Positions 977 through 60,600 of a DNA stretch of 64,000 bases are shown one piece after another. The position numbers were made by a program, and so were the translations under genes. Every line of letters starts with the position of its first letter. Positions within the stretch are counted from its first letter, which is position 1. Where the stretch lies: NCBI GenBank assembly GCA_900317715.1, contig ONHS01000003.1:7954-71953 (forward strand), read 5' to 3'. Source of the DNA: an uncultured Bacteroidales bacterium. GTDB lineage: Bacteria > Bacteroidota > Bacteroidia > Bacteroidales > WCHB1-69. The notes below the pieces were generated by a model. The model had not been told where the DNA came from. It made no database searches and was given only the letters and a program-made list of their open reading frames with translations.

Positions 977-982
977 CTTTGA

Positions 983-1108
983 ACTTAGACTTAGACTTAA
1001 ACTTAGACTTAGACTATTCCCTACTCCCTTCTCCCTATTCCCTAAACCCTAAACCTTAAACCTTAAACCATAAACCTAAAACCAAAACCAAAACCAAAAC
1101 CAAAAACC
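983..1108. repeat. Degenerate short tandem array: ACTTAG hexamers, then TATTCCC/TAAACCC/TAAACCT heptamers, then AAACCA hexamers
   Basis: Read directly from the sequence. It fills the whole mraY/murD-like spacer. TAA recurs at 7-nt spacing on the + strand. Confidence 0.9.
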
Positions 1109-1111
1109 ATT

Positions 1112-2865: not shown

Positions 2866-3010
2866 TATAACCCTCTAACCCTTTAACCTTCTAAACCATA
2901 AACCATAAACCCTAAACCATAAACCCTAAACTCTAAACCCTAAACTCTAAACCCTAAACTCTAAACTAATAACCCTTTAACCGCCTAACCGTCTAACCCC
3001 CTCTCAACCC
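2866..3010. repeat. Degenerate heptamer array (ATAAACC / CTAAACC / CTAAACT family)
   Basis: About 20 consecutive 7-nt units read directly. TAA falls in all three + frames. It fills the ftsW/ABC-F spacer. Confidence 0.92.
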
Positions 3011-7270: not shown

Positions 7271-7275
7271 CAACC

Positions 7276-7340
7276 GTCAAAATCAATATCATAAATCAAA
7301 AGTCATAAGTCAAACGTCAAACGTCATACGTCATACATCT
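7276..7340. repeat. Degenerate heptamer array (GTCAAAC / GTCATAC / GTCATAA family)
   Basis: Read directly. On the complementary strand it reads GTATGAC/GTTTGAC, with TGA at 7-nt spacing. Confidence 0.85.
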
Positions 7341-12146: not shown

Positions 12147-12179
12147 AAGGTAGGGGCGAATAATCATTCGCCCTACCTT
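12147..12179. repeat. REP-like hairpin, GTAGGGGCGAA...TTCGCCC(C)TAC family
   Basis: AAGGTAGGGGCGAA-taatca-TTCGCCCTACCTT, a 13-bp stem with one bulge. Confidence 0.8.
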
Positions 12180-12266: not shown

Positions 12267-12353
12267 GGAGAGGTGGGTGAGTGGCTGAAACCACCAGTTT
12301 GCTAAACTGACGAAGGGGTAACTCTTCCGCGAGTTCGAATCTCGCTCTCTCCG
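12267..12353 (+). tRNA. tRNA-Ser (anticodon GCU), class II with a long variable arm; no encoded CCA
   Basis: Folded by hand. Acceptor stem GGAGAGG/TCTCTCC (one G-U pair). Anticodon loop TTGCTAA. Variable arm GAAGGGGTAACTCTTC. T-arm GCGAG-TTCGAAT-CTCGC. Discriminator G. Confidence 0.9.
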
Positions 12354-12360
12354 CGACCTT

Positions 12361-12388
12361 GTAGGGGCGAAAGATTTTTCGCCCCTAC
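12361..12388 (+). terminator. Perfect 12-bp hairpin (GTAGGGGCGAAA-gatt-TTTCGCCCCTAC) 8 nt after tRNA-Ser; probable terminator or processing hairpin, REP family
   Basis: Read directly. Same family as the hairpin at 12147-12179. Only a weak T tract follows. Confidence 0.55.
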
Positions 12389-12413: not shown

Positions 12414-12448
12414 ATTCATCATTCATCATTCTACATTCTTCATTCCGC
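12414..12448. repeat. Degenerate heptamer array (ATTCATC family)
   Basis: Five units: ATTCATC ATTCATC ATTCTAC ATTCTTC ATTCCGC. Confidence 0.85.
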
Positions 12449-12462
12449 ATTGACAAATTCCG

Positions 12463-13209: not shown

Positions 13210-13792
13210 GATCGCCATTGCTGAACCTTCACAGATGCTGCGCAACGGCCTCGCCGACCTCTTGCGCGACGTGCCCGACACGGAGGTGGTCTTCTCCACG
13301 GACAACCTGAACGCATTGTTTTCCAGAATGCCGGCGTTGCATGCGGACATTCTGATTATCAACCCGTTGCTCTTCGAGTACAGCCACCGCGCCACGCTCC
13401 GCGCCGAATTCGACAACCATCCCGAACTGCGCCTCATCGCTCTCGTCACCTCTTACCTCGAATCCCAGCATCTCCGCCAGTTCTCCGGCATCATCGAACT
13501 CAACGACGACCTCCAGCGCGTGAAATCGACCATCAACCAGGTGGTCAACACCCTCCAATCCGACGGCGACGAACCTGACACCGACCCCCTCTCCGACCGC
13601 GAAAAAGAGGTCCTCATCTGCCTCTCCAAAGGTCTGAAAAACAACGAAATAGCAGATACTCTCAACATCTCCGTCCACACCGTCATCACCCACCGCAAAA
13701 ACATCGTCCGCAAAACCGGCATCAAATCCGTCGCGGCGCTGACGGTATATGCGATATTGAACAATTTGATTGAAGAAAAAGACATCATTTAG
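13202..13792 (+). CDS. LuxR/FixJ-family DNA-binding regulator with a degenerate (pseudo-)receiver domain
   Basis: ATG overlaps the upstream stop by 8 nt (ATGATTAA). C-terminal LuxR HTH (LSDREKEVLICLSKGLKNNEIADTLNISVHTVITHRKNI). The N-terminal REC-like fold lacks the acidic pocket (IAIAEPS instead of DD; ILIINP instead of the phospho-Asp motif). Confidence 0.8.
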   Translation: MIKIAIAEPSQMLRNGLADLLRDVPDTEVVFSTDNLNALFSRMPALHADILIINPLLFEYSHRATLRAEFDNHPELRLIALVTSYLESQHLRQFSGIIELNDDLQRVKSTINQVVNTLQSDGDEPDTDPLSDREKEVLICLSKGLKNNEIADTLNISVHTVITHRKNIVRKTGIKSVAALTVYAILNNLIEEKDII

Positions 13793-13985
13793 TTAGCAGT
13801 TAGCAGTTAGTAGTTAGTAGTTAGCAGTTTATGCCGAAAGAGCCACTATATATTAAACTACTTCCTTGAGCAGCCCCGCTAGGGGCAAGAGCTAGGTAGC
13901 CAGGGGTGAGCGCAGCGAAACCCCTGGGACGGATGACGACGATGACACGATGATGCGATGAATGACGATGATGAATAACGAATAC
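13793..13985 (+). repeat. Structured intergenic repeat (MITE/REP-like), copy A: TTAGCAG/TTAGTAG heptamers, a ~105-nt core with two stem-loops, then a GATGA-rich tail
   Basis: Core 13828-13932 is near-identical to 15944-16046 and, in inverse orientation, similar to 39261-39368. Stem-loops GCCCC-gcta-GGGGC and CCAGGGG-n14-CCCCTGG. Confidence 0.85.
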
Positions 13986-13994
13986 CCAGACAAT

Positions 13995-15914
13995 ATGAAT
14001 AAAATAATCACCCTAATTATCACATTATGCCTCGCGTGGTCGATGGCCACCGCGCAGGCCCCCGACCCCTACGCCGGTTACGACCGCGTGACCCTCTATG
14101 ACAGCATGACCGTGCGCATGGAGGAGAACGGTCTCAGCCACTACCTCAACCATCAGCGTTACAGAGTGTTGAGTGATGTTGGCTGCCGCGACAACAACAC
14201 GATCATCGTCGATTACGACCCGCTGTCAGCCTACTGCGAAATCCGCGACGTGGTCATCTACCGCCACGATGGCACGGAGGAGCACCCCGATTTCATGGTG
14301 TGCGACTACCCTGCCCCCGCCCACATGATCTATTGGGGCGCACGGCAGAAGATGGTCGCCCTCGGTCGCCTCGAAATTGGCGACGAGGTGGAATTCCTCA
14401 CCTACAAGAAAGGGTTTACCTACGCGCTGCTGCAGGGCGAGGACCCCGACGCGAAGTACATTCCGCCCATGCGCGGCCACTTCTACGACATCGTCCCCTT
14501 TTGGAGCAGTCAGCCCGTGAAGGAGAAAGTGTATCAAGTCAGTGTGCTGACCAACAAGAATTTGCAGTACAAGATCTACAACGGGAATCTTGCCGTGAAA
14601 ACCACGAAGGATGGCGACCGCACCCTCTTCACCTTCTCAAGCACGGACTATTTCCCGTTGAAGACCCCGCGCTACACCGTGGCCAACAACGACATTGAGC
14701 CAAAGCTCATCGTGACCACCGCGCAAAATTGGGAGGCTAAGTCGATGTGGTTTTACGGCGTAAACGAAGATTTTGGCAGTTTCGAGGCCACGCCGGAAAT
14801 CCAGGCCAAGGTCAACGAGCTGCTGAAGCCGGCCAAGACCGAAAACGACAGTTTGGACATCCTCACGCACTGGGTGGCCGACAACGTGCGCTACTCCGGC
14901 ATCTCGATGGGCGAAGGCGAGGGATTCACGCTCCACAAGTGCGAGATGACCTTCCGCGACCGCTGTGGTGTCTGCAAGGACAAGGCTGGCATGCTCATCG
15001 GCATGTTGCGGGCGGCGGGCTTCAAGGCCTACGCTGCCATGACGATGGCCGGCGAGCGCATCGAGGACATCCCCGCCGACCAATTCAACCATTGCATCAC
15101 GGTGGTACAGCGTCGCAACGGCAACTACCAACTTTTGGATCCCACGTGGGTTCCGGGCGTGCGCGGCGAACTCTGGTCCAGCGCGGAACAGCAACAGAAC
15201 TACCTGATGGGACTGCCTAAAGGCTCGAAGTTGGGACTTACCCCCGTCTCCGACCCGAAGAACCACTACGTGCGCATGACCGCCCAGACCGAAGTCACCA
15301 AAAAGGGCTCGCTCAAGGGCACCGTCACCATCACCGCCGACCGGCAGAGCGACCGCACCGTGCGCGGTGTCTTCTACGGCTTCCGCACCGAATGGCGACG
15401 CAATGTGGAAGAGATGCTCTATGCGCAGTACCCCAACGCGAAACTCAAAAGCGTGAAATACACCAGCGAGGACGACTACCTCAAACAACCGGTAAGCATC
15501 ACCTACACGTTCGAAATCCCTGACTACGCGATTGTTACGGACAACGAGGTGATCGCCACGCCCTTCCTCGCCAACGGCTTCTACACCTTCGCCATGCGTC
15601 ACCTCTTCTACGACATCAGCTTGGAGAAGCGCGACTACCCCTTCACTGACCGTTGCTCCCGCTACGTCGCCATCAACGAAACGATGAAGGTGCCATCGGG
15701 TTACACCCGCGTGAGCACGCCCCAATCGCAGCAGTTCGTCACCCCAACCATCTCGTTCAAAGGCGGTTACCAAATCGGCTACAACATGGTCACCTTCACC
15801 GAAAACATCACCCTCGGCAAGCGCGTCTATGAGGCTTCCGAATGGCCCTCTTTCCGCAAAGCCGTGCAATGCCAACGAGGGTATATGGGGAATCCGGTGG
15901 TGTTCATCAAATAG
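13995..15914 (+). CDS. Exported DUF3857-like / transglutaminase-like cysteine-peptidase-fold protein
   Basis: The track start at 13962 lies in the GATGA repeat. ATG 13995 gives a signal peptide MNKIITLIITLCLAWSMATA|QAP. Transglutaminase core Cys (GVCKDKAGMLIGMLRAAG), then His (FNHCITV) and Asp (LLDPTW). GC-rich gene. Confidence 0.78.
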   Translation: MNKIITLIITLCLAWSMATAQAPDPYAGYDRVTLYDSMTVRMEENGLSHYLNHQRYRVLSDVGCRDNNTIIVDYDPLSAYCEIRDVVIYRHDGTEEHPDFMVCDYPAPAHMIYWGARQKMVALGRLEIGDEVEFLTYKKGFTYALLQGEDPDAKYIPPMRGHFYDIVPFWSSQPVKEKVYQVSVLTNKNLQYKIYNGNLAVKTTKDGDRTLFTFSSTDYFPLKTPRYTVANNDIEPKLIVTTAQNWEAKSMWFYGVNEDFGSFEATPEIQAKVNELLKPAKTENDSLDILTHWVADNVRYSGISMGEGEGFTLHKCEMTFRDRCGVCKDKAGMLIGMLRAAGFKAYAAMTMAGERIEDIPADQFNHCITVVQRRNGNYQLLDPTWVPGVRGELWSSAEQQQNYLMGLPKGSKLGLTPVSDPKNHYVRMTAQTEVTKKGSLKGTVTITADRQSDRTVRGVFYGFRTEWRRNVEEMLYAQYPNAKLKSVKYTSEDDYLKQPVSITYTFEIPDYAIVTDNEVIATPFLANGFYTFAMRHLFYDISLEKRDYPFTDRCSRYVAINETMKVPSGYTRVSTPQSQQFVTPTISFKGGYQIGYNMVTFTENITLGKRVYEASEWPSFRKAVQCQRGYMGNPVVFIK

Positions 15915-16090
15915 TTAGCAATTAGCAGTTAGTAGTTAGCAGTTCATGCTGAAAGCTCCCACATATATTCAACTACTTCCTTGAGCAGCCCCGCTAGGGG
16001 CAAGAGCTCGGTAGCCAGGGGTGAGCGCAGCGAAACCCCTGGAACGAATGGCGATGATGAAGCGATGAATGATGCGATGAATGACGATAA
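15915..16090 (+). repeat. Structured intergenic repeat, copy B
   Basis: Begins immediately after stop TAG 15912-15914. Same architecture and orientation as copy A. Confidence 0.85.
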
Positions 16091-16165
16091 AATAATTATG
16101 CATTATGAATTACAAATTATGAATTTAATTGTGCATTATGCATTATGAATTATGAATTTATAAAG
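16091..16165. repeat. Degenerate heptamer array (ATTATGA / ATTATGC family)
   Basis: Read directly. TGA at 7-nt spacing on the + strand. Overlaps the spurious TTG/ATG-extended start of the next gene. Confidence 0.85.
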
Positions 16166-16168
16166 AAC

Positions 16169-17845
16169 ATGAGTAAACGATACATTATTACAATTTTGGC
16201 GGTATGCATGATGGCAACCGCATTCGGCAAAGCCCCCGAAAAGGACGCCGTCTATAAGCTCATTTCCAAGAGCTACACGTTGAACACGGACGGTTCCACA
16301 GAGTTCCGCAAGCGCACGGAGCTGCAGATTTTCACGCGGATGACGTTCGACCATTTCGGGGAGACATTCATCACCTACAACCCTGATTTCCAGGAGCTCA
16401 TCATCAACGAGGCGTACACCATCCGCAAGGACGGCAGTAAGGTGGAGACCCCTGCCAACGCCTTCAACCCGATGCTACCGGACGGCTGCACAAAGTGTGA
16501 GCGGCTCAACGGCATCCGCACGATGGTGGTGACCCACACGGCTTTGGAATACGATGCCCTCATCGTCCTCGACTACACCATCCGCTCCAAGAACTTCTTC
16601 TTCCAAGAGCTGTTGGAAAAGGTGGATTTGCAGGAGGAGGTGCCGGTGGAGAAGTATGTTATCCGTGTGACAATACCAAATTACAAGACCTTGTCTTTAT
16701 CTTTAAATGGTGAACATTCCAAAGTATCTGGTGACGAGAAAGACAATATGATTACCGTCGAAAACACGTTCACTAATCTGCCGGAACGTCCTACTGACGA
16801 TTACATTCAATCAAGAGATTTCTCATCTCTAACATTTTTTACACTGGATAAAGAGGATGATCTAGTCAACAAGATTATGCAGCAAAATTCCATGCAGAAA
16901 TTTGACAACCCGCAAATTATAGACTTCTTCCGCAGCCGTTTTACCGAAGATATATCTGACATGGATAAGGTGCTGTATGTCAGAGATTATATCCATGACA
17001 ATATCCATACTAACCATTTGGATGCCAAAATGTTAAATTATATGTTCGCCTCGCCGCAGCAAGTGTGGGAAAGCAACTGTGCTTTGCCGATAGAAAAGAA
17101 CATTTTATTGGCTGGAGTGCTGCAAAGTTTGGGATATGATGCAGAGCTTGCGTTCAAGAACAACACACTGCCGACCGATTTAGAAACGGTTGTGCGGTTG
17201 CATTACGAATTCAATACTTGGATGTTTACGCACTACATCTCCGCAAATGAGGCAGAAGATTTGAGTTTGGAAGCCTATTTTGCACCTGCCTCGCTTACCC
17301 TACAAAGTGGTAAACTTGAAGAGGTATATGCGCAACCTATCGACATCAATGTGGCATCCGAAATCACCTTTGAAAACGGACAATTGAACGCCCCAAAGGT
17401 GGATGTCACGAAAAAACATGTCTTTTCACCGCTTATGTGCACTTTACAAATGCAGGATGCCAATGTTTCAAAAGTGTCTGTTTCCCCACTCAGCAACAAA
17501 TACTATGAACTGACCATCGATGACGGCAACTACGGCACGCAAATCCAATCTGTAAACATTCACAACGATCGCAATTACGACATCAACACTGGCCAATCCG
17601 ATGAAAAGTACAGCTACACCATCACGCTACCTTCCAACGTCCGTTGCCTGACGAAACCTGTGCACAAAGAAATCACCGTCGAAAACGCCAAATTGCTGAT
17701 TGATGTTCAGATTGATGGTCAGACGGTGAAGATCACACGGCAGTTAAGTCTGCCTCAGGAGGGCATTTCCGCCAAGAACGTGAAGAAGTTCAAGGCGATG
17801 ATGGGAGAGTGGGACGCGCCACTGAAGGTGGTTTTTTCCCTGTAA
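16169..17845 (+). CDS. Exported DUF3857-like protein, paralogue of 13995-15914 with a diverged transglutaminase-like core
   Basis: ATG 16169 gives the signal peptide MSKRYIITILAVCMMATAFG|K. The N-terminal domain resembles the upstream paralogue by eye (Y.L...S.......G......R...ILS/IFT pattern). A possible core Cys lies in WESNCALPIEKNILLAGVLQSLG. There is a sharp GC drop near 16665. Confidence 0.72.
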   Translation: MSKRYIITILAVCMMATAFGKAPEKDAVYKLISKSYTLNTDGSTEFRKRTELQIFTRMTFDHFGETFITYNPDFQELIINEAYTIRKDGSKVETPANAFNPMLPDGCTKCERLNGIRTMVVTHTALEYDALIVLDYTIRSKNFFFQELLEKVDLQEEVPVEKYVIRVTIPNYKTLSLSLNGEHSKVSGDEKDNMITVENTFTNLPERPTDDYIQSRDFSSLTFFTLDKEDDLVNKIMQQNSMQKFDNPQIIDFFRSRFTEDISDMDKVLYVRDYIHDNIHTNHLDAKMLNYMFASPQQVWESNCALPIEKNILLAGVLQSLGYDAELAFKNNTLPTDLETVVRLHYEFNTWMFTHYISANEAEDLSLEAYFAPASLTLQSGKLEEVYAQPIDINVASEITFENGQLNAPKVDVTKKHVFSPLMCTLQMQDANVSKVSVSPLSNKYYELTIDDGNYGTQIQSVNIHNDRNYDINTGQSDEKYSYTITLPSNVRCLTKPVHKEITVENAKLLIDVQIDGQTVKITRQLSLPQEGISAKNVKKFKAMMGEWDAPLKVVFSL

Positions 17846-17855
17846 AGATGTCCAG

Positions 17856-17920
17856 TCTTCCTCTGGTCTTCCTCTGGTGTAACTCTGGTGTAACTCTGGT
17901 GTTCTCTGGTGTAACTCTGA
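17856..17920. repeat. Tandem 11-mer array (TCTTCCTCTGG x2, TGTAACTCTGG x4 degenerate)
   Basis: Read directly. Starts 10 nt after the stop. Confidence 0.9.
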
Positions 17921-17933
17921 TCAAACCATTGTA

Positions 17934-17955
17934 GAGACGTTGCGCGCAACGTCTC
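17934..17955. repeat. Perfect 22-nt palindrome GAGACGTTGCGCGCAACGTCTC (TGTAGAGACG...CGTCTC hairpin family)
   Basis: Read directly. Related hairpins occur at 18024-18047 and 20501-20530. Confidence 0.85.
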
Positions 17956-18016: not shown

Positions 18017-18047
18017 AAAAAAAAGAGACGCGATGAATCGCGTCTCT
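18017..18047 (-). terminator. Rho-independent terminator of the DUF975 gene
   Basis: Minus strand: AGAGACGCG-attcat-CGCGTCTCT followed by T8. Lies 19 nt after the stop. Confidence 0.8.
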
Positions 18048-20500: not shown

Positions 20501-20530
20501 TGTAGAGACGGTGAGCGCACCGTCTCTACA
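20501..20530 (+). terminator. 13-bp perfect hairpin TGTAGAGACGGTG-agcg-CACCGTCTCTACA, a possible terminator without a U tract
   Basis: Lies 45 nt after the stop at 20456. Member of the TGTAGAGACG hairpin family. Confidence 0.45.
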
Positions 20531-28966: not shown

Positions 28967-29002
28967 TGTTTTGATTTTATTCTATGAACATTCCCCAAAA
29001 GC

Positions 29003-29044
29003 CAACAGCCAAAAGCCAACAGCTAACAGCTAACAGCCAAAGAC
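29003..29044. repeat. Degenerate heptamer array (CAACAGC / TAACAGC; complement TTAGCTG family)
   Basis: Six units read directly. The last ~7 codons and the TAG stop of tex lie inside the array. Confidence 0.85.
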
Positions 29045-31176: not shown

Positions 31177-31325
31177 GACTTATGACGTTGGACGTATGAT
31201 TTTGATTTATGATTTATGACGTTGAAAATATAACTATTTACTCGTAATCTTATCTCAAGTCACACGTCACACGTCACACGTCACACGTCACACGTCATAA
31301 AACACACGTCACACGTCAACGTCTC
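31177..31325. repeat. Two opposed heptamer arrays: GACTTAT/GACGTAT/ATTTATG (31177-31233) and GTCACAC/GTCATAA (31259-31325)
   Basis: Read directly. The GACGTAT family is the reverse complement (by rotation) of the GTCATAC family, giving an imperfect long inverted repeat. Confidence 0.88.
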
Positions 31326-37835: not shown

Positions 37836-39197
37836 TCACTCCTTGTACCATTTCACCTTCAGCGACACGAACATCAGCACCGCCAAAATCACAAAGATGC
37901 CGAGGCTGCCGAAGAGCAGGGCGTAGGTCTCCATCTGGAGCAACACATACATGAAGACGTAGAGCAGAAGAAGCAGGGCACCCACCATCAGCGCGGTTTT
38001 GCGGATTTTCAGGATGCCCGCCAAGTAGCCCGTGATCAGCACGATGGTCATCAGCATGGCGATGAGATACGACCAAAGGAAGGGGATGTGCTCGCTGAAC
38101 GAGAGCAACAGCGTGTAGAACACCAGCAACGCGGCACCGATGAGCAGATACTGTACCGGGTGGATGGGCGTCTGCCGACGGTACTCCACGAAAAAGACCG
38201 TGGCGAAGGTGAGGAAAATGAACAGGTAGGCGTACTTCACCGTGCGCGTGGTCTGCTGGTACTGTAACACCGGTACCCTCATCATCACCCCGAACTCGTT
38301 CTTCTTCATGCTTACGCTGTGCGAGCCCCCGTCGCCGTACACCCATTGGGTCACCGACTGCCCGAAGTCGCGGTTGAGGGCCAGCACCTTCCACGTCGAG
38401 GTGAACCCACTGTCCGACACGGTCCGCTCGTTCGGCAGGAAGTTGCCCTGGAAGCTCGGCGTGGCACAGTTGGAGGTCAGTTGCACGGAGGTGCTGTTGC
38501 CCACCGGCAGGAACATCAGCGACTCCGAGCCCTTCAGCGACAACTGCACAGAGTAGGTCGCAGATACCGAATCTTGCATCTCTCTCACAGGCACACGGCA
38601 GCACAACACTGACCCCAACTCCTCGTCTTTGTCGGATCTCATCGTATATTCATTTCCGTTCAGCCGCAACACCACATTCTCCGACAGCCCCCGGAAGTCG
38701 CTCAACGAAATCAGCACCTCCGCCTTCGAGATGTCATAGACGGAATCCACATATTCCGACAGATTTGGCAGTTGTAGACTGCCGTCCAATGTCAGATCCG
38801 CGGTATAGACGGTCACATCGAAGTTGCCGCGATGCCGTTTCTCCGTCTTCACATCGCCCTTCACCTGCAAGGATTCAGGCAGAAGATATACATCCTTATG
38901 GTAGTTTTTACTGGGGATACGCACCACCGGTCCGATTACCCGCTGCGGCGCACTCCACATCTGCTCCACATCTTTCTCGGCCTCCACCTGGGTCGCGTTC
39001 CGCTCATTCACCACGTGCAGGATGATTTGCTGCGGAATAAGCAGAATAAGGCTGATAAGCCCGATGAGGAGGAGCTTCAGCAGCATACGGTCGCTGCGCT
39101 TCATTCTTGATTTTTCCTGCGTGGCAGGTCTTGTTTGTTCTGCTTGCGGTGTCGTCACCGCGGTTGTCGTTTCTGTTGTTTTTGTTTCTGTTGTCAT
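37836..39197 (-). CDS. creD: CreD-like cell-envelope integrity inner-membrane protein
   Basis: ATG start. T/E-rich N-terminal extension, one TM, a large periplasmic domain, then 5 C-terminal TM segments, which is the CreD family layout. Motifs LLKLLLIGLISLILLIP and SFSEHIPF. Confidence 0.78.
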   Translation of the reverse strand: MTTETKTTETTTAVTTPQAEQTRPATQEKSRMKRSDRMLLKLLLIGLISLILLIPQQIILHVVNERNATQVEAEKDVEQMWSAPQRVIGPVVRIPSKNYHKDVYLLPESLQVKGDVKTEKRHRGNFDVTVYTADLTLDGSLQLPNLSEYVDSVYDISKAEVLISLSDFRGLSENVVLRLNGNEYTMRSDKDEELGSVLCCRVPVREMQDSVSATYSVQLSLKGSESLMFLPVGNSTSVQLTSNCATPSFQGNFLPNERTVSDSGFTSTWKVLALNRDFGQSVTQWVYGDGGSHSVSMKKNEFGVMMRVPVLQYQQTTRTVKYAYLFIFLTFATVFFVEYRRQTPIHPVQYLLIGAALLVFYTLLLSFSEHIPFLWSYLIAMLMTIVLITGYLAGILKIRKTALMVGALLLLLYVFMYVLLQMETYALLFGSLGIFVILAVLMFVSLKVKWYKE

Positions 39198-39240
39198 ATT
39201 TTTGGATTTTTGGTGAATAATATCGAATGTACGTTCATTG

Positions 39241-39400
39241 TATCATCATATCCTCGTCATTCGACCCAGGGTTGCGGCCAGAGGCCTTACCCTGGGCTAC
39301 CGAGCTCTTGCCCCTACGGGGCTACTCAAGGAAGTAGTTTAATATATGTGGGAGCTTTTCGGCATAAACTGCTAACTTCTAACTACTAACTGCCAACTAT
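39241..39400 (-). repeat. Structured intergenic repeat, copy C (inverse orientation, co-oriented with creD)
   Basis: The reverse complement aligns with copies A and B. Stem-loops GCCCC-gta-GGGGC and CCCAGGG-n18-CCCTGGG, the latter shifted and compensated relative to A/B. Confidence 0.8.
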
Positions 39401-39409
39401 CAAAAAGTA

Positions 39410-39424
39410 CTTTGCGCTACAAAG
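39410..39424. promoter_or_regulatory. Operator-like motif CTTTGCGCTACAAAG, within the conserved 22-mer AAAAGTACTTTGCGCnnCAAAG
   Basis: Second copy of the motif at 40517-40531. Lies just after the regulator stop and upstream of copy C and creD. Confidence 0.45.
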
Positions 39425-39812: not shown

Positions 39813-39862
39813 CACAAGTTTCAGATTTCAAGTTTCAGGTTTCAAGTCACAAGTCACAAGTC
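39813..39862. repeat. Degenerate heptamer array (CACAAGT / TTCAAGT / TTCAGGT)
   Basis: Read directly. The minus strand has TGA at 7-nt spacing immediately after the stop at 39863. Confidence 0.88.
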
Positions 39863-40516: not shown

Positions 40517-40531
40517 CTTTGCGCCGCAAAG
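40517..40531. promoter_or_regulatory. Perfect 15-bp palindrome CTTTGCG-C-CGCAAAG overlapping the -7 box; a candidate operator
   Basis: Read directly. Lies between the -7 box (40527-40534) and ATG 40504. Confidence 0.5.
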
Positions 40532-40575: not shown

Positions 40576-40675
40576 GCTGTTGGCCATTAGCTATTAGCTG
40601 TTAGCTGTTAGCTGTTAGCTGTTGGCTGTTGGCTGTAAGCTTCAACTACTAACTACTAACTACTAACTGCTAACT
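40576..40675. repeat. Opposed heptamer arrays: GCTGTTA/GCTATTA x9, then CTACTAA x4-5
   Basis: Read directly. CTACTAA is the reverse complement of TTAGTAG, so the two halves form an imperfect inverted repeat. Confidence 0.9.
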
Positions 40676-40707
40676 AAAAAAAAGCGACCGATTCGAAAAC
40701 CGGTCGC
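40676..40707 (-). terminator. Rho-independent terminator ending the rpoBC-DUF3467 transcription unit
   Basis: Minus strand: GCGACCG-gttttcgaat-CGGTCGC followed by T8. Lies 33 nt after the stop at 40740. Confidence 0.8.
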
Positions 40708-40739
40708 CACAAAATTTATAAAAAAGTTGAACGTAGTCG

Positions 40740-41045: not shown

Positions 41046-41104
41046 TTTCTATATCCTCTTTAATAAGTTATTACTTTAGATAATTGTTATTGTTTAGGAT
41101 TCGA

Positions 41105-41176
41105 GACGTATGACGTATGACTTATGACGTTGGGTTATTCAATACATCATACGTCCTACGTCACACGTCTTACGAC
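41105..41176. repeat. Opposed heptamer arrays: GACGTAT/GACTTAT, then CATACGT/CCTACGT/CACACGT
   Basis: Read directly. The two arms are reverse complements with periodic mismatches. The array abuts the rpoC stop. Confidence 0.88.
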
Positions 41177-52570: not shown

Positions 52571-52690
52571 GCATTTTTTTTAATCAAACCCCCACTGTTG
52601 AAAAAAAAATTTCACTATGGCACGCTTTTTGTAGTAAAAATCGTTAACCATCTGAGAATCAAAACCTAATCTCTTAATCCTCCCACAGAT

Positions 52691-52778
52691 CTTCCATCTT
52701 ACTTCTTCCATCATCCATCTTCCAACATTCATCATTCATCATTCTTCATTATGCATTATGAATTATGAATTATGAATT
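52691..52778. repeat. Opposed heptamer arrays: CTTCCAT/CATTCAT, then CATTATG/AATTATG
   Basis: Read directly. ATGAATT is close to the reverse complement of CATTCAT, giving an imperfect inverted repeat. Confidence 0.88.
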
Positions 52779-52806
52779 AAAAAAGGGACTCCCTTCCGGA
52801 AGTCCC
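52779..52806 (-). terminator. Rho-independent terminator of the OmpA-family gene
   Basis: Minus strand: GGGACTTCC-gg-AAGGGAGTCCC imperfect hairpin followed by T6. Lies 25 nt after the stop at 52831. Confidence 0.7.
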
Positions 52807-54431: not shown

Positions 54432-54677
54432 CTATTTTACGATAACGAATTTAACAGTCTTGATTTCATTTGTACCCGTCAAGATACGACCGAAGTAAGT
54501 ACCTTGTGCCTTGAATCCTTCAATCTTAGTGATCGGAGTCAAATCAGTCACGTGGTTGATAAGAGCACCAGTCACGCTGTAGATGTCGAGGACTGCACCT
54601 TCGAGTTCTTCAGCTGTCAAATCAAGTTCGATAGTGATTTCTTGACGAACATTTGCAGGAACAGGATAAACCTTGAC
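54432..54677 (-). other. T9SS C-terminal sorting domain (CTD) of the giant protein
   Basis: The last 81 aa are VKVYPVPANVRQEITIELDL...LDIYSVTGALI...GTYFGRILTGTNEIKTVKFVIVK. This is the same pattern as the CTD of 7435-9153. Confidence 0.8.
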
Positions 54678-57600
54678 AGTAGAAACTGCATTGAAGTACA
54701 TTTCACAAGTCTTATAGGTAATCATGTTGCCGTTAGCATCTTGTTCAATCAATTCAACTGAATAGAATCCGTTCAGACCACCGATCTCTTGATAGTTAGA
54801 ATAGATAGCGCCAGGAATTGCAACACCATTTCTGTACCACTGGAAGCCCACGAAGGTGTGACCACCGTTGGTTGCAGGATTGTTGTTCACAACCACAACG
54901 TCGTTCCATCTTTGATCCATGATCGGGAGAGAACCACCGAATGCGTAATCACCAGCAAGTACACGTACTACGATGTCGTATGAACAACCATCCACTGTGA
55001 AGACTGCAGTGTAGTCACCAGGAGCAGAAGGAGCTGCGAATGTAGCAGAGTTGTTGCTGATCGTGCCAGCATCTTGTAAACCGTTGTTATAAACCACGGT
55101 GAATGCAGCTTGAGGATTACCGGAAATCATGTTGAAGTGGATGGTCACTTGACCATTGTCATTACAACCTGATTCGAAGAAGTTCTCAGAGAATTCAATT
55201 TCGTTGACGAAGACAGTAGCAATAGCATCTGCAGTGAATGAAGTGTTCTCGCAGTAAGCGTCAGCAACCAAATTAATTCTGTAAGTGGTTTGTTCGCTCG
55301 GAGCGACGAAGATGCTAGCCGTGTTAGCCATTGTAGTAGCAGCAGCAACAACATTACCATTGCCATCAACAACCTCATATTGGAACGGAGCAACACCGGT
55401 GAATGCGATAACGAGTTCAACAGATGCACTAGGATCGTTAGAACAGATTGATGCGCCATCACCACTGGTGAAGGTAGCCGTAGGCAGTTCGTGGATGGTA
55501 ATTGCAGCAGCAACAGCACCAGTATTGGTCAATTGACAACCGCTACCAATGTTACCAACGAAGGTCGGAGTATAGGTGTAAGTACCAGCTTGAGTAGGCA
55601 GATCGTATGAATTGCCACCGAGACCGCCAGACACGTCAGTCGTGTTGCCGTTTTCATCAGTAACAGTCCATTGGATATGACCACCAGTGTAGTAAGCATA
55701 ATCGAATGCACCACCTTGGATAGCAGCCTGCAAGGTAACGAGGTCGCCGATACAACCGTCTAACAGATGTGAGCTGTAAACGTGAACCTCGGTCCAAGAA
55801 GGATTACCAACAACATTCACAACCTCGACGTTAGAGGATTGAGGTTGACAGTTGTAACCAGAAGTTGAAACGACAACCTGATAGCTGTAGTTGCCAACAG
55901 TGTTCAGAGTCTCAGTAATCTGGTTCATAGCAGTGGTGACAGGAGTATTAGAGTGTGCAATGACACCGTTAGAGAGCCAATTGAAGGTCATATTACCGTA
56001 GATGTTGCTGTTCGTCACACCATTGACAGTATTGTTGTAGTTGGTAACAACACCAGTGAGAGTAACAGAACCGCCTTCGCAGATAGCAAGACCATCAGCA
56101 GAGTTCAAAGCCACAACAGGTTGTTCAGCAACTTGGACAGTCACAGGAGCAGACCAAGTAGAAGCGCAACCGAGGTTGTTGTTTTGAGCAACTCTCAAGG
56201 TGTAGGTGTAAGAACCAGCTGCATTGAGAGGTTGTACGAAGGTATTAGCAACAGCGCCTTCAACTTCAATACCGTTGATAGCCCATTGATAGGTGATATC
56301 GCCAGGAATGTTGCTGTTAGCGGTAACGTTTGCAGTCAAAGTGGTGGTACCACCAACACACATTTCAGTGTGGTCAGCAGCGATAGTCACTGTAGGAGCA
56401 GCAACAACTTGAACAGGAGCAGCGATAGTAGCTGTAGCAGAACAAGAAGCGCTTGCATTGGCAGCAGAGACGATAACGCTTGCACTGATTGTACCAACGT
56501 TTGCAATAGAAGCGGTAACAGTGTTAGCATTCACAGCTTGTTGTGTACCGTTGACCGTCCAAACATAGTTGTAAGAACCAACAGGAGCAACGTGAGCGGT
56601 GAAGGTCACTTGACCGTTTGCACATACATAGTTATTATCAGCAGTGATGGTAACTGAAGGAGCAGCCAAGACATTCACTTCGTGAGCCTCAGAAGTTGCG
56701 GTACATCCAGTATTGTCGGCACGAGAGATCGTGACGGTGAAGTAATAAGGAGTAGCAGCATCGTTAGCAGCAACAGAAGGAACGAAGGTAGGAACAGCAG
56801 TGGTCTCAGTACCTTGAGCAGCACCAGTCCAATTCCATACGTAGGTGTAAGCAGCACCTTCAACACCACCAGTGACGAATGCATTCAAGGTGAGGTCACC
56901 GCCTTCACAAACCGTATTAGCACCGTTGATTGTCACAGAAGGACGTGCAACAACATTTGCAGGAACAGTGTTGGAGACAGTTGAACAACCATTGATAGCG
57001 CTGGTCACAACCACATAGTAATCGTAAGAATCACCGAGGAGGAGATCTGAAGTGGAGTATTGTGCAGCATTTGCACCTTGGATAGCAACTGCATTGTCAC
57101 CATTCACAATTCTGTACCATTGATAGCTCAAAACATCACCAGTGATAACATTGTTCACAGTAGCAGTGAGAGTAAGGTTACCACCTTCGCAGACATTGCC
57201 GAAACCAGCGATGTCAACAGTGTAAGAAGGATTGATGCTAACCAGCGTATTGATATTTGCAGAAGCATTGTTAGCGCAACCAATACCGGTTTGAGCGATC
57301 TCAACAGTGTAAACATCATTGTCACCATAGTTGAGAACAGGGATGTTCAGAGTTTGGTTGGTCTCACCATTCATAATAGTACCATTCTTGTACCATTGAT
57401 AAGTGATGTCACCATAACCGCCAGTCACATTAGCCTTGATAGCCGTAGAACCACCGTTACAAACAGTAGTAGCATAACCGTTCACGACAGAGATCGTCAC
57501 GACAGGATCAGCAACAATGCTGTAGTTGACAGGATCAGAAGTGGATTGACAACCATAGTTAGAGGTGACAGTCACCCAGTATGAGTAGTTGCCAGCAGCA

Positions 57601-60600
57601 TCCTCAGAAGAAGTGGTGAATGAAGGAGTATTAGCAACAAACTCAGTAGTAGTATTCGTATTTCTATACCATTCGTAAGTGTAACCATTCAGACCGTTCA
57701 CACCTGCAACACCACCGTCAACAACTGCGGTGAGAGTAGCGGTACCGCCAACACAAGTGATGTCATTGCTAATAGTAGCAGTAACAACAGGATCAGCAAC
57801 AACCGTGATAGCAGGAGCAGCAGCAGTCACGTTACAACCAGGATTAGCAGTAACAACCACAGTGAAGTTGTAAGCAGTTTCGCGAGCAACCTCAGCAACA
57901 GTGTAATCAGCGCTGTTAGCACCGAGGATCACAGCATTGTCCTTATACCATTGATAGCTATAAGCAGCGAGAGGAGTAACATTTGCATGTAAGGTGGTAG
58001 AACCGCCATCGCAAATGGTAGTATTACCCTCAACAGTAACAGCCACAACAGGAGTAGGAACAACCGTCACGATTGCATCAGCAGAAGCAGATGAAGTACA
58101 ACCAGACATCGGCACGATTGCAGTTGCAGTGTAAACGTAGATGGTAGCGTCACCATCAACCGTGACAGGAGACTCGGTCAGAGTAGCCTGATGAGCGTCA
58201 GAGATGACAACACCATTTCTAGTCCATTCGTAAGAAGCACCCGCAACAGCGTTAGAGACAGCCAAAGTAACTTGACCACCGTCGCAAATCGTAGCGTTAT
58301 CAACGGTTACGACAGGAGTAGCAGGAACTGCATTCACAGTGATATTGATAGTATCCGTAGCAACACAACCAGAGGTGCTTTGAGAAGCCGTCACGATGAA
58401 GGTCTCAACACCAGCGGTGGTAGCATTGAAGGTATAAGCAGAACCTTGGAAACCATTGTTCCAGTTGTAGTTCACATCGCTATTGTTCCAACCGGTAACT
58501 TCAGCAGTGATAACGGTAGTACCGCCAACACAGATTTCAGTCTCGGTAGCAGTGAGCTGCATTTGAGGAGCCTCAGCAACAGTTACGTCGTAAGACATAG
58601 ACTCAGTTGAACAAATACCAGAAACCGTAGCAACAACCTTATAAGAACCAGCTGCGGTAACAGTGATATGATCAGCAGTAGGAACATTGTTCATAGCAAC
58701 ACCATCCTTGTACCAAGCGTAGGTGATGGCAGAAGCAGGAGCGGTTGCCGTAACATTTGCATACAGAGTGGTGTTACCACCGTCGCAGAAGTTATTGACA
58801 CCAGAGATGACAACAGACTCAGGAGCGGAGATACCAACATAGTAAGCATAAACGATACGACCATTGTACATAGCGTACGGTAATGCACGTTCAGATACAC
58901 AACCTTCTTCGCTGGTAACAGTAGCAGAGAGATAGTGAAGACCTTCTTCTGCATTGAAGATGATTTGAGCAGTATTCATACCAGGAAGTTCGAAACCATC
59001 CATGTACCAAGTCACTTGCATGTTATCAGTGCCCTGAGCAATGATAGCTGCAATTTGAGAACCAGTACAGATAGAATCAGCAGAAACAACCACGATAGGA
59101 GTAGCAGGACGAGGATTGACGTTGATCGTAATCTCACCAACAGCTTGACATGTGCCAGCAGCGTTAGTAACAGTTGCAGTCACAGTGTAAGTGGTGGTGG
59201 TATCAGGTTGTACGTCGATCGTAGTAGCGTGGCTACCAGTTGACCATACGAATTCAACATTGCCAACCCAACCATTTTGCTCAACAGAGAGAGTGGTATG
59301 TTCACCTTCACAGATGTTAGTAGCAGTAGCGCTCACGAGAACTTGAGTACCGAATGCTTCAACCGTGAAGTTATCAGAAGTCATAGAGCAACCTTCTGCA
59401 GTTTCGAGGGTCACGTTGTAAACGCCAGCCTCAACCACATGGGTAGCACCGACAGTACCGTCGTTCCAAGTGAAGGTACCTTCAACATCAGAATGAGCGG
59501 TCAAAACAGTAGAATCATTTTGACAAATGACATTGTTACCTGTGATAGTCACAGTGGTAGGAGCAGGAGTGACAACCACAGCAGGAGCAGCAACAGCATC
59601 TGCAGAGACGCATTGTTCATTGCTGATAGCCTTGACAGAGTAGTTGTAAACACCAGCCTCATTGAAGTTAACCGTAAGAACTGCTTGGTTCTCACCAGCG
59701 ATCACATGACCGTTGTTGTACCAAATGTAAGCAGTAGCGGTTGAATCAGCCGTAGCGGTGAAGGTCACCTGCTGACCTTGGCAGATAACAGTATCAGAAA
59801 CTGTCACAGCAGTAATAACAGGCAGCGGGTTAACAACGATGGTAACCTGACCCTCAGCGGTACAAGAACCGTTGTTGTTGGTAACAGTAGCAGTCACATG
59901 ATAAGTGGTGGTAGCAGCAGGAGTGACATCAACCGTAGAAGCGGTGCTGTTGCCAGCCTGAGCATCCCATTGATAAGTCACATTGCCTTGCCAACCTTCT
60001 TGGTCAACAAACAGAGTGGTATGTTCGCCCTGACAAATAGCGGTAGCAGAAGCGCTCACCAAGATGTCAGTACCGAAGGACTCAACAGTGAAAGGTTCAG
60101 AAGTCATTTCACAAGCCTCTTCCTCAGTGGTGCTAACCGTTACAGTGTAAACGCCAGCAGGAACCTTGATAGAAGACTCGTGAGAACCGTTAGACCAAGT
60201 AATGATACCCTCAACATCAGAGGAAACGGTCAAAACAGTGCTGTCACCCTCGCAAATCACATTGTTACCAGTGATAGTAACTGATGTAGGAGCAGGATTG
60301 ATCGTAACCATAGCTTCAGGAGACATCGCAGAAACACAACCTGAACCCGGGAAGGTAACGATAGCGCTATAATAATTGGTCGTCACATGATTGTCAGTGG
60401 TGAAGACATTCTCAGTGAAGATAGGCAGATGTGCACCTTCGATTTCGAAGCCATTTCTGTACCAAGTGTAGACACCTGCTTCGTCATTGTCTTGGTCAGT
60501 AGAAGCAGCCACGATAACTTGAGCGCCGTTACAAACAACGTCGTCAACTGCGATAACTTCAGTAATCACAGGAACAGGAGCAACATTGATGATAATCTCG

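Follow-up and report, generated by a model that had tools for sequence, protein, structure and literature searches.

The window analysed here, a 64-kb stretch of contig ONHS01000003.1 from an uncultured Bacteroidales bacterium, contains three copies (A, B and C) of a structured repeat. They lie at 13793-13985 (+), 15915-16090 (+) and 39241-39400 (-), as reported in a first-pass annotation of the sequence. The genes named there as downstream neighbours are borne out by Pfam. Copy A is located between a gene for a GerE/LuxR regulator and a gene with DUF3857 and Transglut_core domains (13962/13996-15914). Copy B separates the latter from a second DUF3857 gene, which also carries DUF3858 (16145/16169-17845), and copy C is found between a gene for an HTH_34 regulator and creD (37836-39197, -). 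Judged from orthologues, the start codons after copies A and B are probably those at 13996 and 16169. Over 3.4 kb, the window is identical to a scaffold from a cattle-rumen assembly. Here, we characterise the repeat and the large, strongly polar family to which it belongs.

The three copies align with each other over ∼190 columns. Two 22-nt probes from the core, with up to three mismatches allowed, match the window only at these three sites, with 0 matches expected from 100 shuffles. A covariance model of the core, built from family members, scores the window copies at 60-63 bits. Since the next-best match reaches only 10.7 bits, the window contains exactly three copies. The order of the parts is identical in all of them, and the layout described earlier holds: TTAGYAG heptamers are followed by a conserved core with two stem-loops and then by a GATGA-rich tail. 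The description of the head and tail needs correction, as both are microsatellite arrays whose copy number, and even unit, vary among orthologous loci. Tandem Repeats Finder rows cover the heads at 13791-13829, 15913-15944 and 39367-39399, and comparable arrays occupy many other spacers of the same genome. We divide the element into a head, the modules M0, M1 and M2, and a tail, as follows.

Copy A, 13793..13827, + strand: head of five tandem TTAGCAG/TTAGTAG heptamers, directly after the TAG stop codon of the LuxR-type gene.
Copy A, 13828..13861, + strand: M0, a subfamily-specific 5' extension (TTTATGCCGAAAGAGCCACTATATATTAAACTAC) with an AT-rich 3' end.
Copy A, 13862..13899, + strand: M1, the family-defining core, TTCCTTGAGCA - hairpin - AAGAGCTAGGTAG (62.0 bits); the hairpin is GCCCC (13873-13877)-GCTA-GGGGC (13882-13886).
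Copy A, 13900..13927, + strand: M2, a GC-rich imperfect palindrome, CCAGGGGT-GAGCGCAGCGAA-ACCCCTGG, resembling repetitive extragenic palindromic (REP) sequences, directly after GTAG.
Copy A, 13928..13985, + strand: tail of GATGA-rich 7-8-nt repeats, ahead of the probable DUF3857 start at 13996.
Copy B, 15915..15942, + strand: head of four TTAGCAR/TTAGTAG heptamers, directly after the stop codon of the first DUF3857 gene.
Copy B, 15943..15976, + strand: M0.
Copy B, 15977..16014, + strand: M1 (62.8 bits), with hairpin arms at 15988-15992 and 15997-16001.
Copy B, 16015..16042, + strand: M2, CCAGGGGT...ACCCCTGG.
Copy B, 16043..16158, + strand: tail, GATGA-rich to ∼16090 and then an AATTATG heptamer array (16094-16158), ahead of the probable start at 16169.
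Copy C, 39369..39396, - strand: head, TTGGCAG TTAGTAG TTAGAAG TTAGCAG.
Copy C, 39334..39368, - strand: M0.
Copy C, 39297..39333, - strand: M1, TTCCTTGAGTA - hairpin GCCCC-GTA-GGGGC - AAGAGCTCGGTAG (60.1 bits).
Copy C, 39265..39296, - strand: M2 variant, CCCAGGGT-AAGGCCTCTGGCCGCA-ACCCTGGG.
Copy C, 39198..39264, - strand: tail and remaining creD leader, up to the ATG at 39197.
39410..39424, - strand: palindrome CTTTG-N5-CAAAG between the HTH_34 gene and copy C, which belongs to the surroundings of the repeat and not to the repeat itself.

A count of copies in relatives, suggested in the first-pass annotation, was obtained by searching 185,579 species-representative genomes for a degenerate 21-base pattern of the core. 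It returned at least 105 stretches, for which orientation and neighbour class were tabulated. The loci were studied as 8-kb slices of metagenome-assembled genomes (MAGs) and are numbered with the prefix L. The matches listed all come from uncultured ruminant-gut Bacteroidales, in ∼25 MAGs, and by our count one MAG alone accounts for 15 loci among the matches listed. As far as sampled, the family is confined to this clade.

The at least 105 loci hold at least 112 exact M1 cores, and M1 is the sole module common to all 112 copies. It spans ∼38 nt and consists of TTCCTTGAGCA, a 5-bp GC hairpin with a G(N)NA loop, and AAGAGCTYGGTAG. The two unpaired flanks are nearly invariant. M1 is preceded by ∼15 AT-rich bases with an AAA(C/A) motif and is usually embedded in heptamer microsatellite arrays. 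In the M1' subfamily, AAGAC-GCGCGAAGCGC-AATTAA stands in place of AAGAGCTYGGTAG. M0 is likewise restricted to a subfamily. M2, a 28-32-nt palindrome with an 8-bp outer stem, is optional and occurs in several variants, including the longer M2b and M2d (CCCCACAnAAGCG...GCAGTGTGGGG). Directly 5' of M2 lies GGTAG, and this tag may belong to M1, with which it remains where M2 is absent. The difference between copies in stem-loop 2, CCAGGGGT/ACCCCTGG in A and B against CCCAGGGT/ACCCTGGG in C, had been taken as compensatory. The difference is real, but it reflects two recurrent module variants of the family rather than compensatory change in place.

Two further modules occur outside the window. M3, which follows M1-M2b in at least 11 loci and is not present in the window, is a conserved GC-rich module of 330 nt. 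MX is a nested hairpin pair with the 3' end GGGGTAG. The MX sequence, (T)TCCCCTTCTTTTAGAAGGGGTGCCCGAAGGGCGGGGTAGT, sits within the M0 region between CCCCAAT and AATATT (L088 lacks it) and was found in L035, L036, L061, L064, L068, L069, L076, L078 and L083 (RGIG9320 and others) as well as in L106, L109 and L117; in L079, MX is inserted inside the M1 hairpin itself. Across the family, the modules combine as M1 alone, M1 with M2a, M2b, M2c or M2d, M0+M1+M2, MX+M1'+M2d, M1-M2b-M3, and tandem M1 arrays with periods of 55 nt or 84 nt. All arrangements seen are head-to-tail, and no inverted (REPIN-like) pairs occur.

M0, M1 and M2 do not correspond to any catalogued RNA. At gathering thresholds, Rfam 15 returned only a tRNA from the whole window. 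A permissive scan of 13700-16250 gave only chance snoRNA and miRNA matches (E ≥0.38), and scans of 18+6 loci found no family for M0, M1 or M2. A full-text literature search with the core sequence retrieved only unrelated human and hepatitis B virus primers. The element is thus apparently undescribed in Rfam and in the literature searched. Elements of this kind are known; new here are its strict polarity, a head-to-tail arrangement of modules, single-stranded flanks that are invariant, and its embedding in microsatellites.

Evidence for a conserved structure centres on the hairpin of M1 (hairpin 1). Its stem occurs in seven variants (GCCCC/GGGGC, GCCTC/GAGGC, GTCCC/GGGAC, GTCTC/GAGAC, GTTCC/GGAAC, GCCCT/AGGGC and AGCCC/GGGCT). 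In a 45-sequence alignment the helix is 98.7% paired, with double-sided changes in four of the five pairs. Among copies fetched by the 5' flank alone, that is without any pairing criterion, 19 pair perfectly, at a chance rate for a perfect hairpin of 0.9%. Three further M1-like copies, picked out by eye, show a single G.U (two copies) or an A.C (one copy). The loops are G(N)NA closed by C-G with almost no exception, as are those of the inner hairpins GCGC-GAA-GCGC and GCAC-GAA-GTGC. The stems of M2 stay paired across variants, with G.T exceeding A.C by 8:2; the ratio is roughly 16:8 in a hand count of family members, which is only suggestive given its by-eye curation and coding-sequence contamination. 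Covariation backs hairpin 1 only.

Other pairings were considered and rejected. An outer stem around hairpin 1 (UUGAGC/GCUYGG) is 69.5% paired, shows one both-sided change in 45 sequences and is absent from M1'. A long-range stem between M0 and M1 (GCCGAAAGCUC/GAGCUCGGUAGC), which appears in folds of copies B and C, is by reading not kept in copy A, L111 or L112. The TTAGCAG and GATGA arrays are not complementary by inspection. The GUCCY-hairpin motif is a short hairpin flanked by GUC and CY and hence different.

The second main feature of the family is its orientation. Genes were called with a simple codon-usage gene finder, whose map of the window is coherent and fits the long open reading frames and Pfam matches. 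Relative to these genes, M1 is distributed as follows.

Co-directional spacers, M1 sense: 77.
Co-directional spacers, M1 antisense: 7.
Divergent spacers with M1: 13.
Convergent spacers with M1: 5.
M1 called inside genes: 3.

The 77 sense to 7 antisense copies give a binomial p of ∼5e-16, and an independent orientation count gave 74 versus 8. Around creD relatives, all 16 model matches lie on the gene strand. The M2d hairpins behave alike, with 19 of 22 in sense co-directional spacers, 3 in divergent spacers and 0 antisense. A preference for co-directional spacers is ordinary, given that 77% of adjacent gene pairs in these loci run the same way. The orientation within such spacers is not. Random orientation together with a lack of covariation had been named beforehand as the outcome that would speak against a regulatory role. 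The opposite was observed, namely strong polarity and a covarying hairpin 1.

The spacers that hold sense copies are mostly long and are poor in recognisable promoters. The Bacteroidetes -7 box, TAnnTTTG, is found neither in the element nor in 71 of the 77 sense M1 spacers; among 131 control spacers 100 nt or more in length, 61 have one, and it is plainly visible at many other promoters in the window. Neither the spacer of copy A nor that of copy B contains a -7 box, and an intercistronic position is the simplest reading for both copies. At creD, the palindrome at 39410-39424 is conserved in every creD relative examined, at filled and empty sites alike. A second copy (40517-40531, -) lies next to a canonical -7 box, TATCTTTG. 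From these sequences, the palindrome at 39410-39424 is a probable promoter/operator. Because copy C lies downstream of it, copy C would be part of the creD 5' untranslated region (UTR). Both palindromes are followed by TACTTT, and the second stands at the probable promoter of an operon with a 213-aa gene and the HTH_34 gene; the palindrome is a likely operator of the adjacent HTH_34 regulator. Taking orientation and the absence of a recognisable promoter together, most copies are probably transcribed inside polycistronic mRNAs or 5' UTRs.

Could the element itself signal to the transcription machinery, ending transcription of the gene before it as an intrinsic terminator or starting that of the gene after it as a portable promoter? 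Its GC-rich hairpins, the 90 of 102 copies that point towards a downstream gene and the lack of a canonical promoter in M1-holding spacers would all be compatible with this. However, a terminator scan of 13600-16300 found nothing at the elements, and neither hairpin is followed by a U-tract but by AAGAGC or GA-rich sequence, although canonical hairpin + T8 terminators exist elsewhere in the window. A sigma-70 promoter scan likewise found nothing in the elements, and the family has no conserved upstream promoter element beyond the AT-rich 15 nt. Tandem M1 arrays are also hard to square with a promoter. We therefore give this explanation very little credence.

In the window, the gene after each of the three copies encodes an exported or membrane protein, and copy C probably resides in the creD 5' UTR. 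On this association, the first-pass annotation had offered a shared 5'-UTR regulator, or leader, specific to exported and envelope genes as one of its options. The wider family does not follow this pattern. A signal-like N-terminus was scored for 43 of 89 downstream genes (48%) and for 219 of 524 other genes (42%; p=0.30). Judged from N-terminal sequences, many downstream genes appear to be cytoplasmic housekeeping genes, including what we take to be MiaB-, MurA-, FabF-, TadA- and Dxr-like proteins, ABC ATPases and ribosomal protein L19. Since ∼42% of all genes score signal-like, three out of three is unremarkable, and the envelope association in the window is a small-sample effect. In addition, creD orthologues occur with or without the element, also in close relatives. 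A dedicated switch or regulon for envelope genes is not supported, and a leader of this kind is highly improbable.

Comparison of orthologous loci revealed a contrast between the element and its surroundings. For copies A and B, orthologues were available from L091, L043 and L019 (82-88% DNA identity). In the head of copy A, the window has five heptamer units, and L091, L043 and L019 have three, two and one, respectively; the tail array is longer by 19-61 nt in the orthologues. M0 of copy A is 85-100% identical. M1 and M2 together differ at 0-1 of 67 nt (97-100% identical), while the wobble sites of the flanking genes are only ∼64-77% identical (23-36% diverged) in the same orthologues. Even at 20% divergence, the probability of 0-1 differences in 67 nt is below 1e-5. 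Site B is arranged differently. Here, the more distant L019 retains the window modules, with AGGCAAT heptamers as the head, and the closer relatives L091 and L043 carry the variant hairpins GCCCT-GAA-AGGGC and GCCTC-GGA-GAGGC, whose stems are compensated.

The creD site, sampled independently through a metagenome scan with CreD, is more variable still. It is empty in L126 (96% amino-acid identity in CreD), in L114 and L124 (84%) and in L118-L121 (64%). Where filled, it holds five module combinations in a single orientation throughout.

M1 alone: L108.
M0+M1+M2c: window, L111, L112.
M0+M1'+three M2d: L116.
MX+M1'+M2d: L106, L109, L110, L117.
M1'+M2d: L113, L115.

In L111 and L112, the 3' half (M2) and the tail are identical to those of the window and hairpin 1 is different, which places recombination breakpoints inside M1. 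Change was also seen between near-identical strains. L127 and L128 share 1361-1362 of 1362 creD positions with the window (0-1 differences), yet 5 of the 245 spacer positions differ in each strain, and the two together account for six variable positions. The changes include at least two that bring L127 and L128 to the family consensus; at 39324, the T of the window is C, the consensus base, in both strains. Within the head of copy C, near-identical strains differ at 39394 and 39378. Elsewhere, M1 is present in L001 and missing from the orthologous window spacer (977-1111), and in L014 the entire cassette, arrays included, is inverted as one. These sequence comparisons indicate frequent gain, loss, exchange and homogenisation of copies. 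For this reason, the conservation of orthologous copies is not by itself readable as purifying selection.

The annotation had noted that no terminal inverted repeat was evident, and this holds: none was seen by eye in the three-copy or the family alignment, where no formal inverted-repeat search was made. The full element ends in the TTAGYAG and GATGA arrays, and M1 alone ends in AT-rich sequence and GGTAG. No target-site duplication was seen between filled and empty creD sites (window and L108 versus L126 and L114) or between L001 and window 977-1111, at junctions that are blurred by microsatellites. A REP-like or MITE-like nature (MITE, miniature inverted-repeat transposable element), the other main option raised earlier, is thus upheld in the broad sense of a large interspersed family with filled and empty sites in close relatives. 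It does not hold in the narrow sense: the element is not a plain MITE, and it is not the cognate REP of the REP-associated tyrosine transposase (RAYT) of the clade.

The latter point rests on the distribution of Y1 transposases. Using tblastn with RAYT and IS200 probes, we found no Y1 transposase in the window and one real member in the loci, in L070 (PF01797), whose relatives are named RayT by the Joint Genome Institute. This RayT-like gene occupies a syntenic site adjoining hydF and is flanked, and invaded in frame, by GTAGGGACGCGATTTATCGCGTCC repeats. The homologues range from 132 to 257 aa because GTAGGGACGCGATTTATCGCGTCC is inserted in frame inside the gene. No M1-like core lies within 1.5 kb of the gene in 10 loci, where M2 was not searched separately. 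M1/M2 was accordingly rejected as the cognate REP of this RAYT. The GTAGGGACGCGATTTATCGCGTCC variant forms inverted pairs beside the RayT-like gene in related MAGs. A second, canonical REP family, GTAG-(A/G)G(G/A)(G/C)(A/C)G...CTAC (e.g. GTAGAGACGGTGAGCGCACCGTCTCTAC and GTAGGGGCGAAAGATTTTTCGCCCCTAC), of which GTAGGGACGCGATTTATCGCGTCC is a variant, is also present in the window, at 12149-12177, 12361-12388, 17931-17955, 18024-18047 and 20502-20529, with two copies flanking the tRNA at 12267-12353; elsewhere it occurs in L070 (7040-7110) and in L130 and L134 (∼2140-2320).

These observations bear on the idea that the hairpins act as single-stranded DNA, which would make the element a non-autonomous relative of HUH/Y1 elements of the REP/RAYT or palindromic IS200/IS605 type. 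It would be copied by way of hairpins on the exposed strand, and this strand, be it the template of the lagging strand or, in transcribed DNA, the non-template strand, would set the orientation. The lack of visible terminal inverted repeats and target duplications would be expected for such an element, and a RayT-type Y1 transposase does exist in the clade. M2 is a GTAG-tagged imperfect palindrome whose interior (TAAGGCS...SGCCGCA, with a mismatched AA/GC step) resembles REP sequences of E. coli and other enterobacteria. All loops are of the form C-G(N)NA-G, including mini-hairpins of the GCGAAGC type, whose GNA loops make very stable DNA mini-hairpins. On the other hand, the RAYT is associated with a different repeat, the modules stand head-to-tail without inverted pairs, and G.T exceeds A.C in the stems. 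Moreover, the 10:1 sense bias exceeds the replication-strand gene bias that we would expect in Bacteroidetes. On this evidence we regard the single-stranded DNA explanation as improbable.

A different possibility is that a dedicated trans-acting factor (such as an RNA-binding protein, RNase or small RNA) recognises M1 and acts on the transcripts of many operons. In that case the dispersed copies would make up a post-transcriptional network or a form of operon punctuation, with mobility secondary. Several properties fit this: flanks that are near-invariant beside a covarying stem, loops limited to G(N)NA, the sense orientation in promoter-less intercistronic spacers, orthologous copies much better conserved than synonymous sites, and sense-strand-specific structures in other spacers of the same genome. 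Against this, the creD site is empty in strains with a 96% identical CreD, the neighbouring genes have no common theme, the distance from M1 to the start codon ranges from 40 to >400 nt, and M1 forms tandem arrays.

The lone candidate for an RNA partner, the segment CGAGCAUGCGUGAGGGA of M3, proved problematic too. M3 contains an expanded core of the Flavo-1 RNA motif (Rfam RF01705; Weinberg et al. 2010, PMC2864571) on the M1 strand, scoring 32-36 bits in five loci and 44.6 bits in L071 (gathering score 42). A pairing of the M1 flank with CGAGCAUGCGUGAGGGA, suggested by RNAalifold, was rejected: all its columns are invariant, it clashes with the curated Flavo-1 closing stem GGG/CCC, and it is absent in L071. 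By reading, M1 flank variants are incompatible with the pairing as often as compatible. The M1 5' flank was also rejected as a homologue of the Flavo-1 5' end, where one Flavo-1 sequence starts AAUUCCUU within a variable column block. Overall, a dedicated trans-acting factor seems to us rather unlikely, if worth keeping in view.

The M1-M2b-M3 composite itself measures ∼400 nt and was located in L013 (6120-6620), L024 (5675-6075), L028 (1230-1735, -) and L030 (6740-7245, -), and also in L102, L103, L026, L040, L037, L047 and L022. It usually stands 60-90 nt ahead of the -7 box of the following gene. M3 is 80-93% identical between copies and genomes and contains long-range helices, e.g. AATGATTTTGGC/GCCAAAATCATT. 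The short elements may have this larger composite as their parent or partner.

Taken together, we think it somewhat probable that the repeat is a polar interspersed mosaic repeat, of the kind represented by bacterial interspersed mosaic elements (BIMEs) and BOX elements, which is carried in mRNAs and homogenised by recombination. Spread and homogenisation would proceed through recombination or gene conversion between copies. The flanking microsatellites may provide portable homology for this, as all three window copies share head and tail types. A sequence-specific factor may recognise the M1 flanks, and the one-way orientation could result from selection at the transcript level. In mRNA, hairpins without a U-tract would act at most as generic structural punctuation rather than as a gene-specific switch. 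By analogy with REP and BIME sequences, such punctuation could mean protection of mRNA ends, processing or segmental stability.

Several points weigh against this proposal. Overall, the window copies fold no better than shuffled sequences, and the sense strand no better than the antisense (core z-scores of -0.1 to -1.7 for sense and +0.6 to -0.7 for antisense). Near-invariant unpaired flanks and C-G-closed G(N)NA loops are not needed for a generic hairpin role; as sequence features, they suggest specific protein recognition or single-stranded DNA hairpins. A protein-binding site, the third option in the first-pass annotation, would fit such recognition. The strong conservation of orthologous copies could reflect real function instead of homogenisation. 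Neither an enzyme that would mobilise the element nor a target motif or junction signature was found, and the case for mobility is built only on filled, empty and reshuffled sites. The orientation statistics depend on home-made gene calls, and some loci are orthologous, so that the counts are not fully independent. The proposed transcription of the copies is based on their orientation and the absence of a recognisable promoter. In the 13 divergent spacers, mostly with M1-M2b-M3 composites, M1 usually has no upstream -7 box, and these copies may lie outside any known transcript.

The heptamer arrays extend well beyond the element. In the window they occupy 983-1110, 2868-3002, 7271-7336, 12414-12451, 16094-16158, 17861-17919, 28995-29041, 31195-31323, 39815-39862, 40576-40676, 41105-41174 and 52689-52779, with units such as CTAAACC, TCATAAG, AATTATG, CCAACAG, GTCACAC, GCTGTTA and others. 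Across all loci, at least one array is found in 89 of 299 co-directional spacers of at least 40 nt, and TTAGCAG-type arrays are sense in 13 cases and antisense in 1. At 31180-31325 (-) and 41060-41176 (-), a heptamer array (GTGTGAC or GACGTRT) is followed by its near-complement (GTCATAM), and the two form a long hairpin that depends on G.U pairs. For 31180-31325, the predicted energy is -54 kcal/mol for the sense RNA (z -5.0) and -33.5 for the antisense (z -1.8); for 41060-41176, the z-scores are -6.1 (sense) and -4.1 (antisense). These folding predictions suggest RNA-level structure inside operons around rpoBC and the 29-34 kb gene cluster. At 40644-40708 (-), a canonical terminator (GGCGACCGGTTTTCGAATCGGTCGC + T8) runs straight into TTAGCAG/TTAGTAG and TAACAGC arrays, with the next promoter only beyond these. 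As these arrays lie between a terminator and a promoter, heptamer arrays also occur in a probably untranscribed spacer without M1. Outside these spacers, a very long open reading frame of 3172 aa (54432-63950, -) reaches the window end.

Among known repeats, enterobacterial BIMEs, in which conserved linker motifs join REP units, are similar in kind. Like them, the family consists of small GC-rich imperfect palindromes in high copy number, situated between genes and mostly inside transcription units, in which a few motifs are combined in modular fashion and the GTAG tag adjoins the M2 palindrome. The documented role of REP sequences as mRNA stabilisers is a plausible analogue. In contrast to BIMEs, which alternate in orientation, the modules here are head-to-tail and sense only, and M1, the constant unit, carries long unpaired flanks that do not vary. 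The two kinds of element are not homologous in sequence and come from different phyla. The family is also not the repeat that flanks the RAYT, and divergent spacers are not avoided (13 divergent versus 5 convergent). GTAG REPs have been described in several phyla, but only CGTC REPs in Bacteroidetes, and G.T pairs in REP stems have been argued to suggest transcription (Di Nocera et al. 2013, PMC3733652). M2, a 28-32-nt imperfect palindrome after GTAG with G.T pairs in its stems, would fit this argument, and a RayT-like gene occurs in the same clade. The difference from REPIN-RAYT systems is that the cognate REP is the separate GTAGGGACGCGATTTATCGCGTCC family with its inverted pairs, and M1 and M2 are never so paired.

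With pneumococcal BOX (boxA-boxB(n)-boxC) and Correia/NEMIS elements the family shares short modules in variable number and combination, an intergenic location, a stable predicted structure, the lack of coding capacity and presence/absence between strains. It differs in sequence, in its heptamer embedding and in a far stronger orientation bias. Correia elements and MITEs also have terminal inverted repeats, which the window family lacks.

The head and tail have parallels of their own. Heptamer repeats are also known from cyanobacteria as short tandemly repeated repetitive (STRR) sequences. TAACTGA heptamer arrays occur in Beggiatoaceae, Cyanobacteria and five Bacteroidetes, and were proposed to bind a translational regulator just upstream of start codons (MacGregor 2015, PMC4679880). 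As in those arrays, the head and tail are tandem 7-nt units in intergenic, forward orientation with respect to the gene downstream, with several units per spacer and arrays missing from the same spacer in relatives. Here, however, the units are TTAGYAG, GATGAYG and others and flank a structured core, and translational regulation at start codons is at odds with arrays that begin at stop codons. Flavo-1, linked to the family through the M3 core, is a Bacteroidetes element that itself occurs in multiple copies. No match to it was obtained for M1, M2 or the window copies. In Flavobacterium psychrophilum, Flavo-1 occurs sense or antisense to transcribed regions, with many copies outside them (PMC9723704). 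M1, in contrast, is polar.

As a bolder and, in our view, doubtful alternative, M1 could serve as an address tag through which a hitherto unrecognised system of Bacteroidales acts, strand-specifically, on transcribed spacers. This could take the form of a sequence-specific RNA-binding or RNA-cleaving factor that punctuates operon mRNAs at M1 hairpins, or of a new mobile element that enters heptamer arrays with its orientation coupled to transcription. If this were true in either version, a single machinery would comprise the heptamer arrays, M1, the REP-like hairpins and the Flavo-1-like M3, none of which would then be independent junk.

For annotation, the elements should not be read as an envelope-stress regulon. 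They are also a likely confounder for MAG assembly and RNA-motif discovery. Because copies change at the same site between near-identical strains, they could serve as a strain-typing marker, and they are a possible source of strain differences in expression: from the putative promoter, we estimate the creD leader at ∼240 nt with the element and ∼45 nt without. In model bacteria, small interspersed repeats such as REP, BIME, BOX and Correia sequences shape the stability of mRNAs, the polarity of operons and the plasticity of the genome. Such repeats are hardly described in Bacteroidota, and none in the uncultured rumen Bacteroidales that dominate fibre digestion, where this family is both abundant (three copies in 64 kb) and strictly polar. 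Its combination of a covarying stem, invariant unpaired flanks and microsatellites offers a handle on how repeats of this kind spread without an evident transposase.

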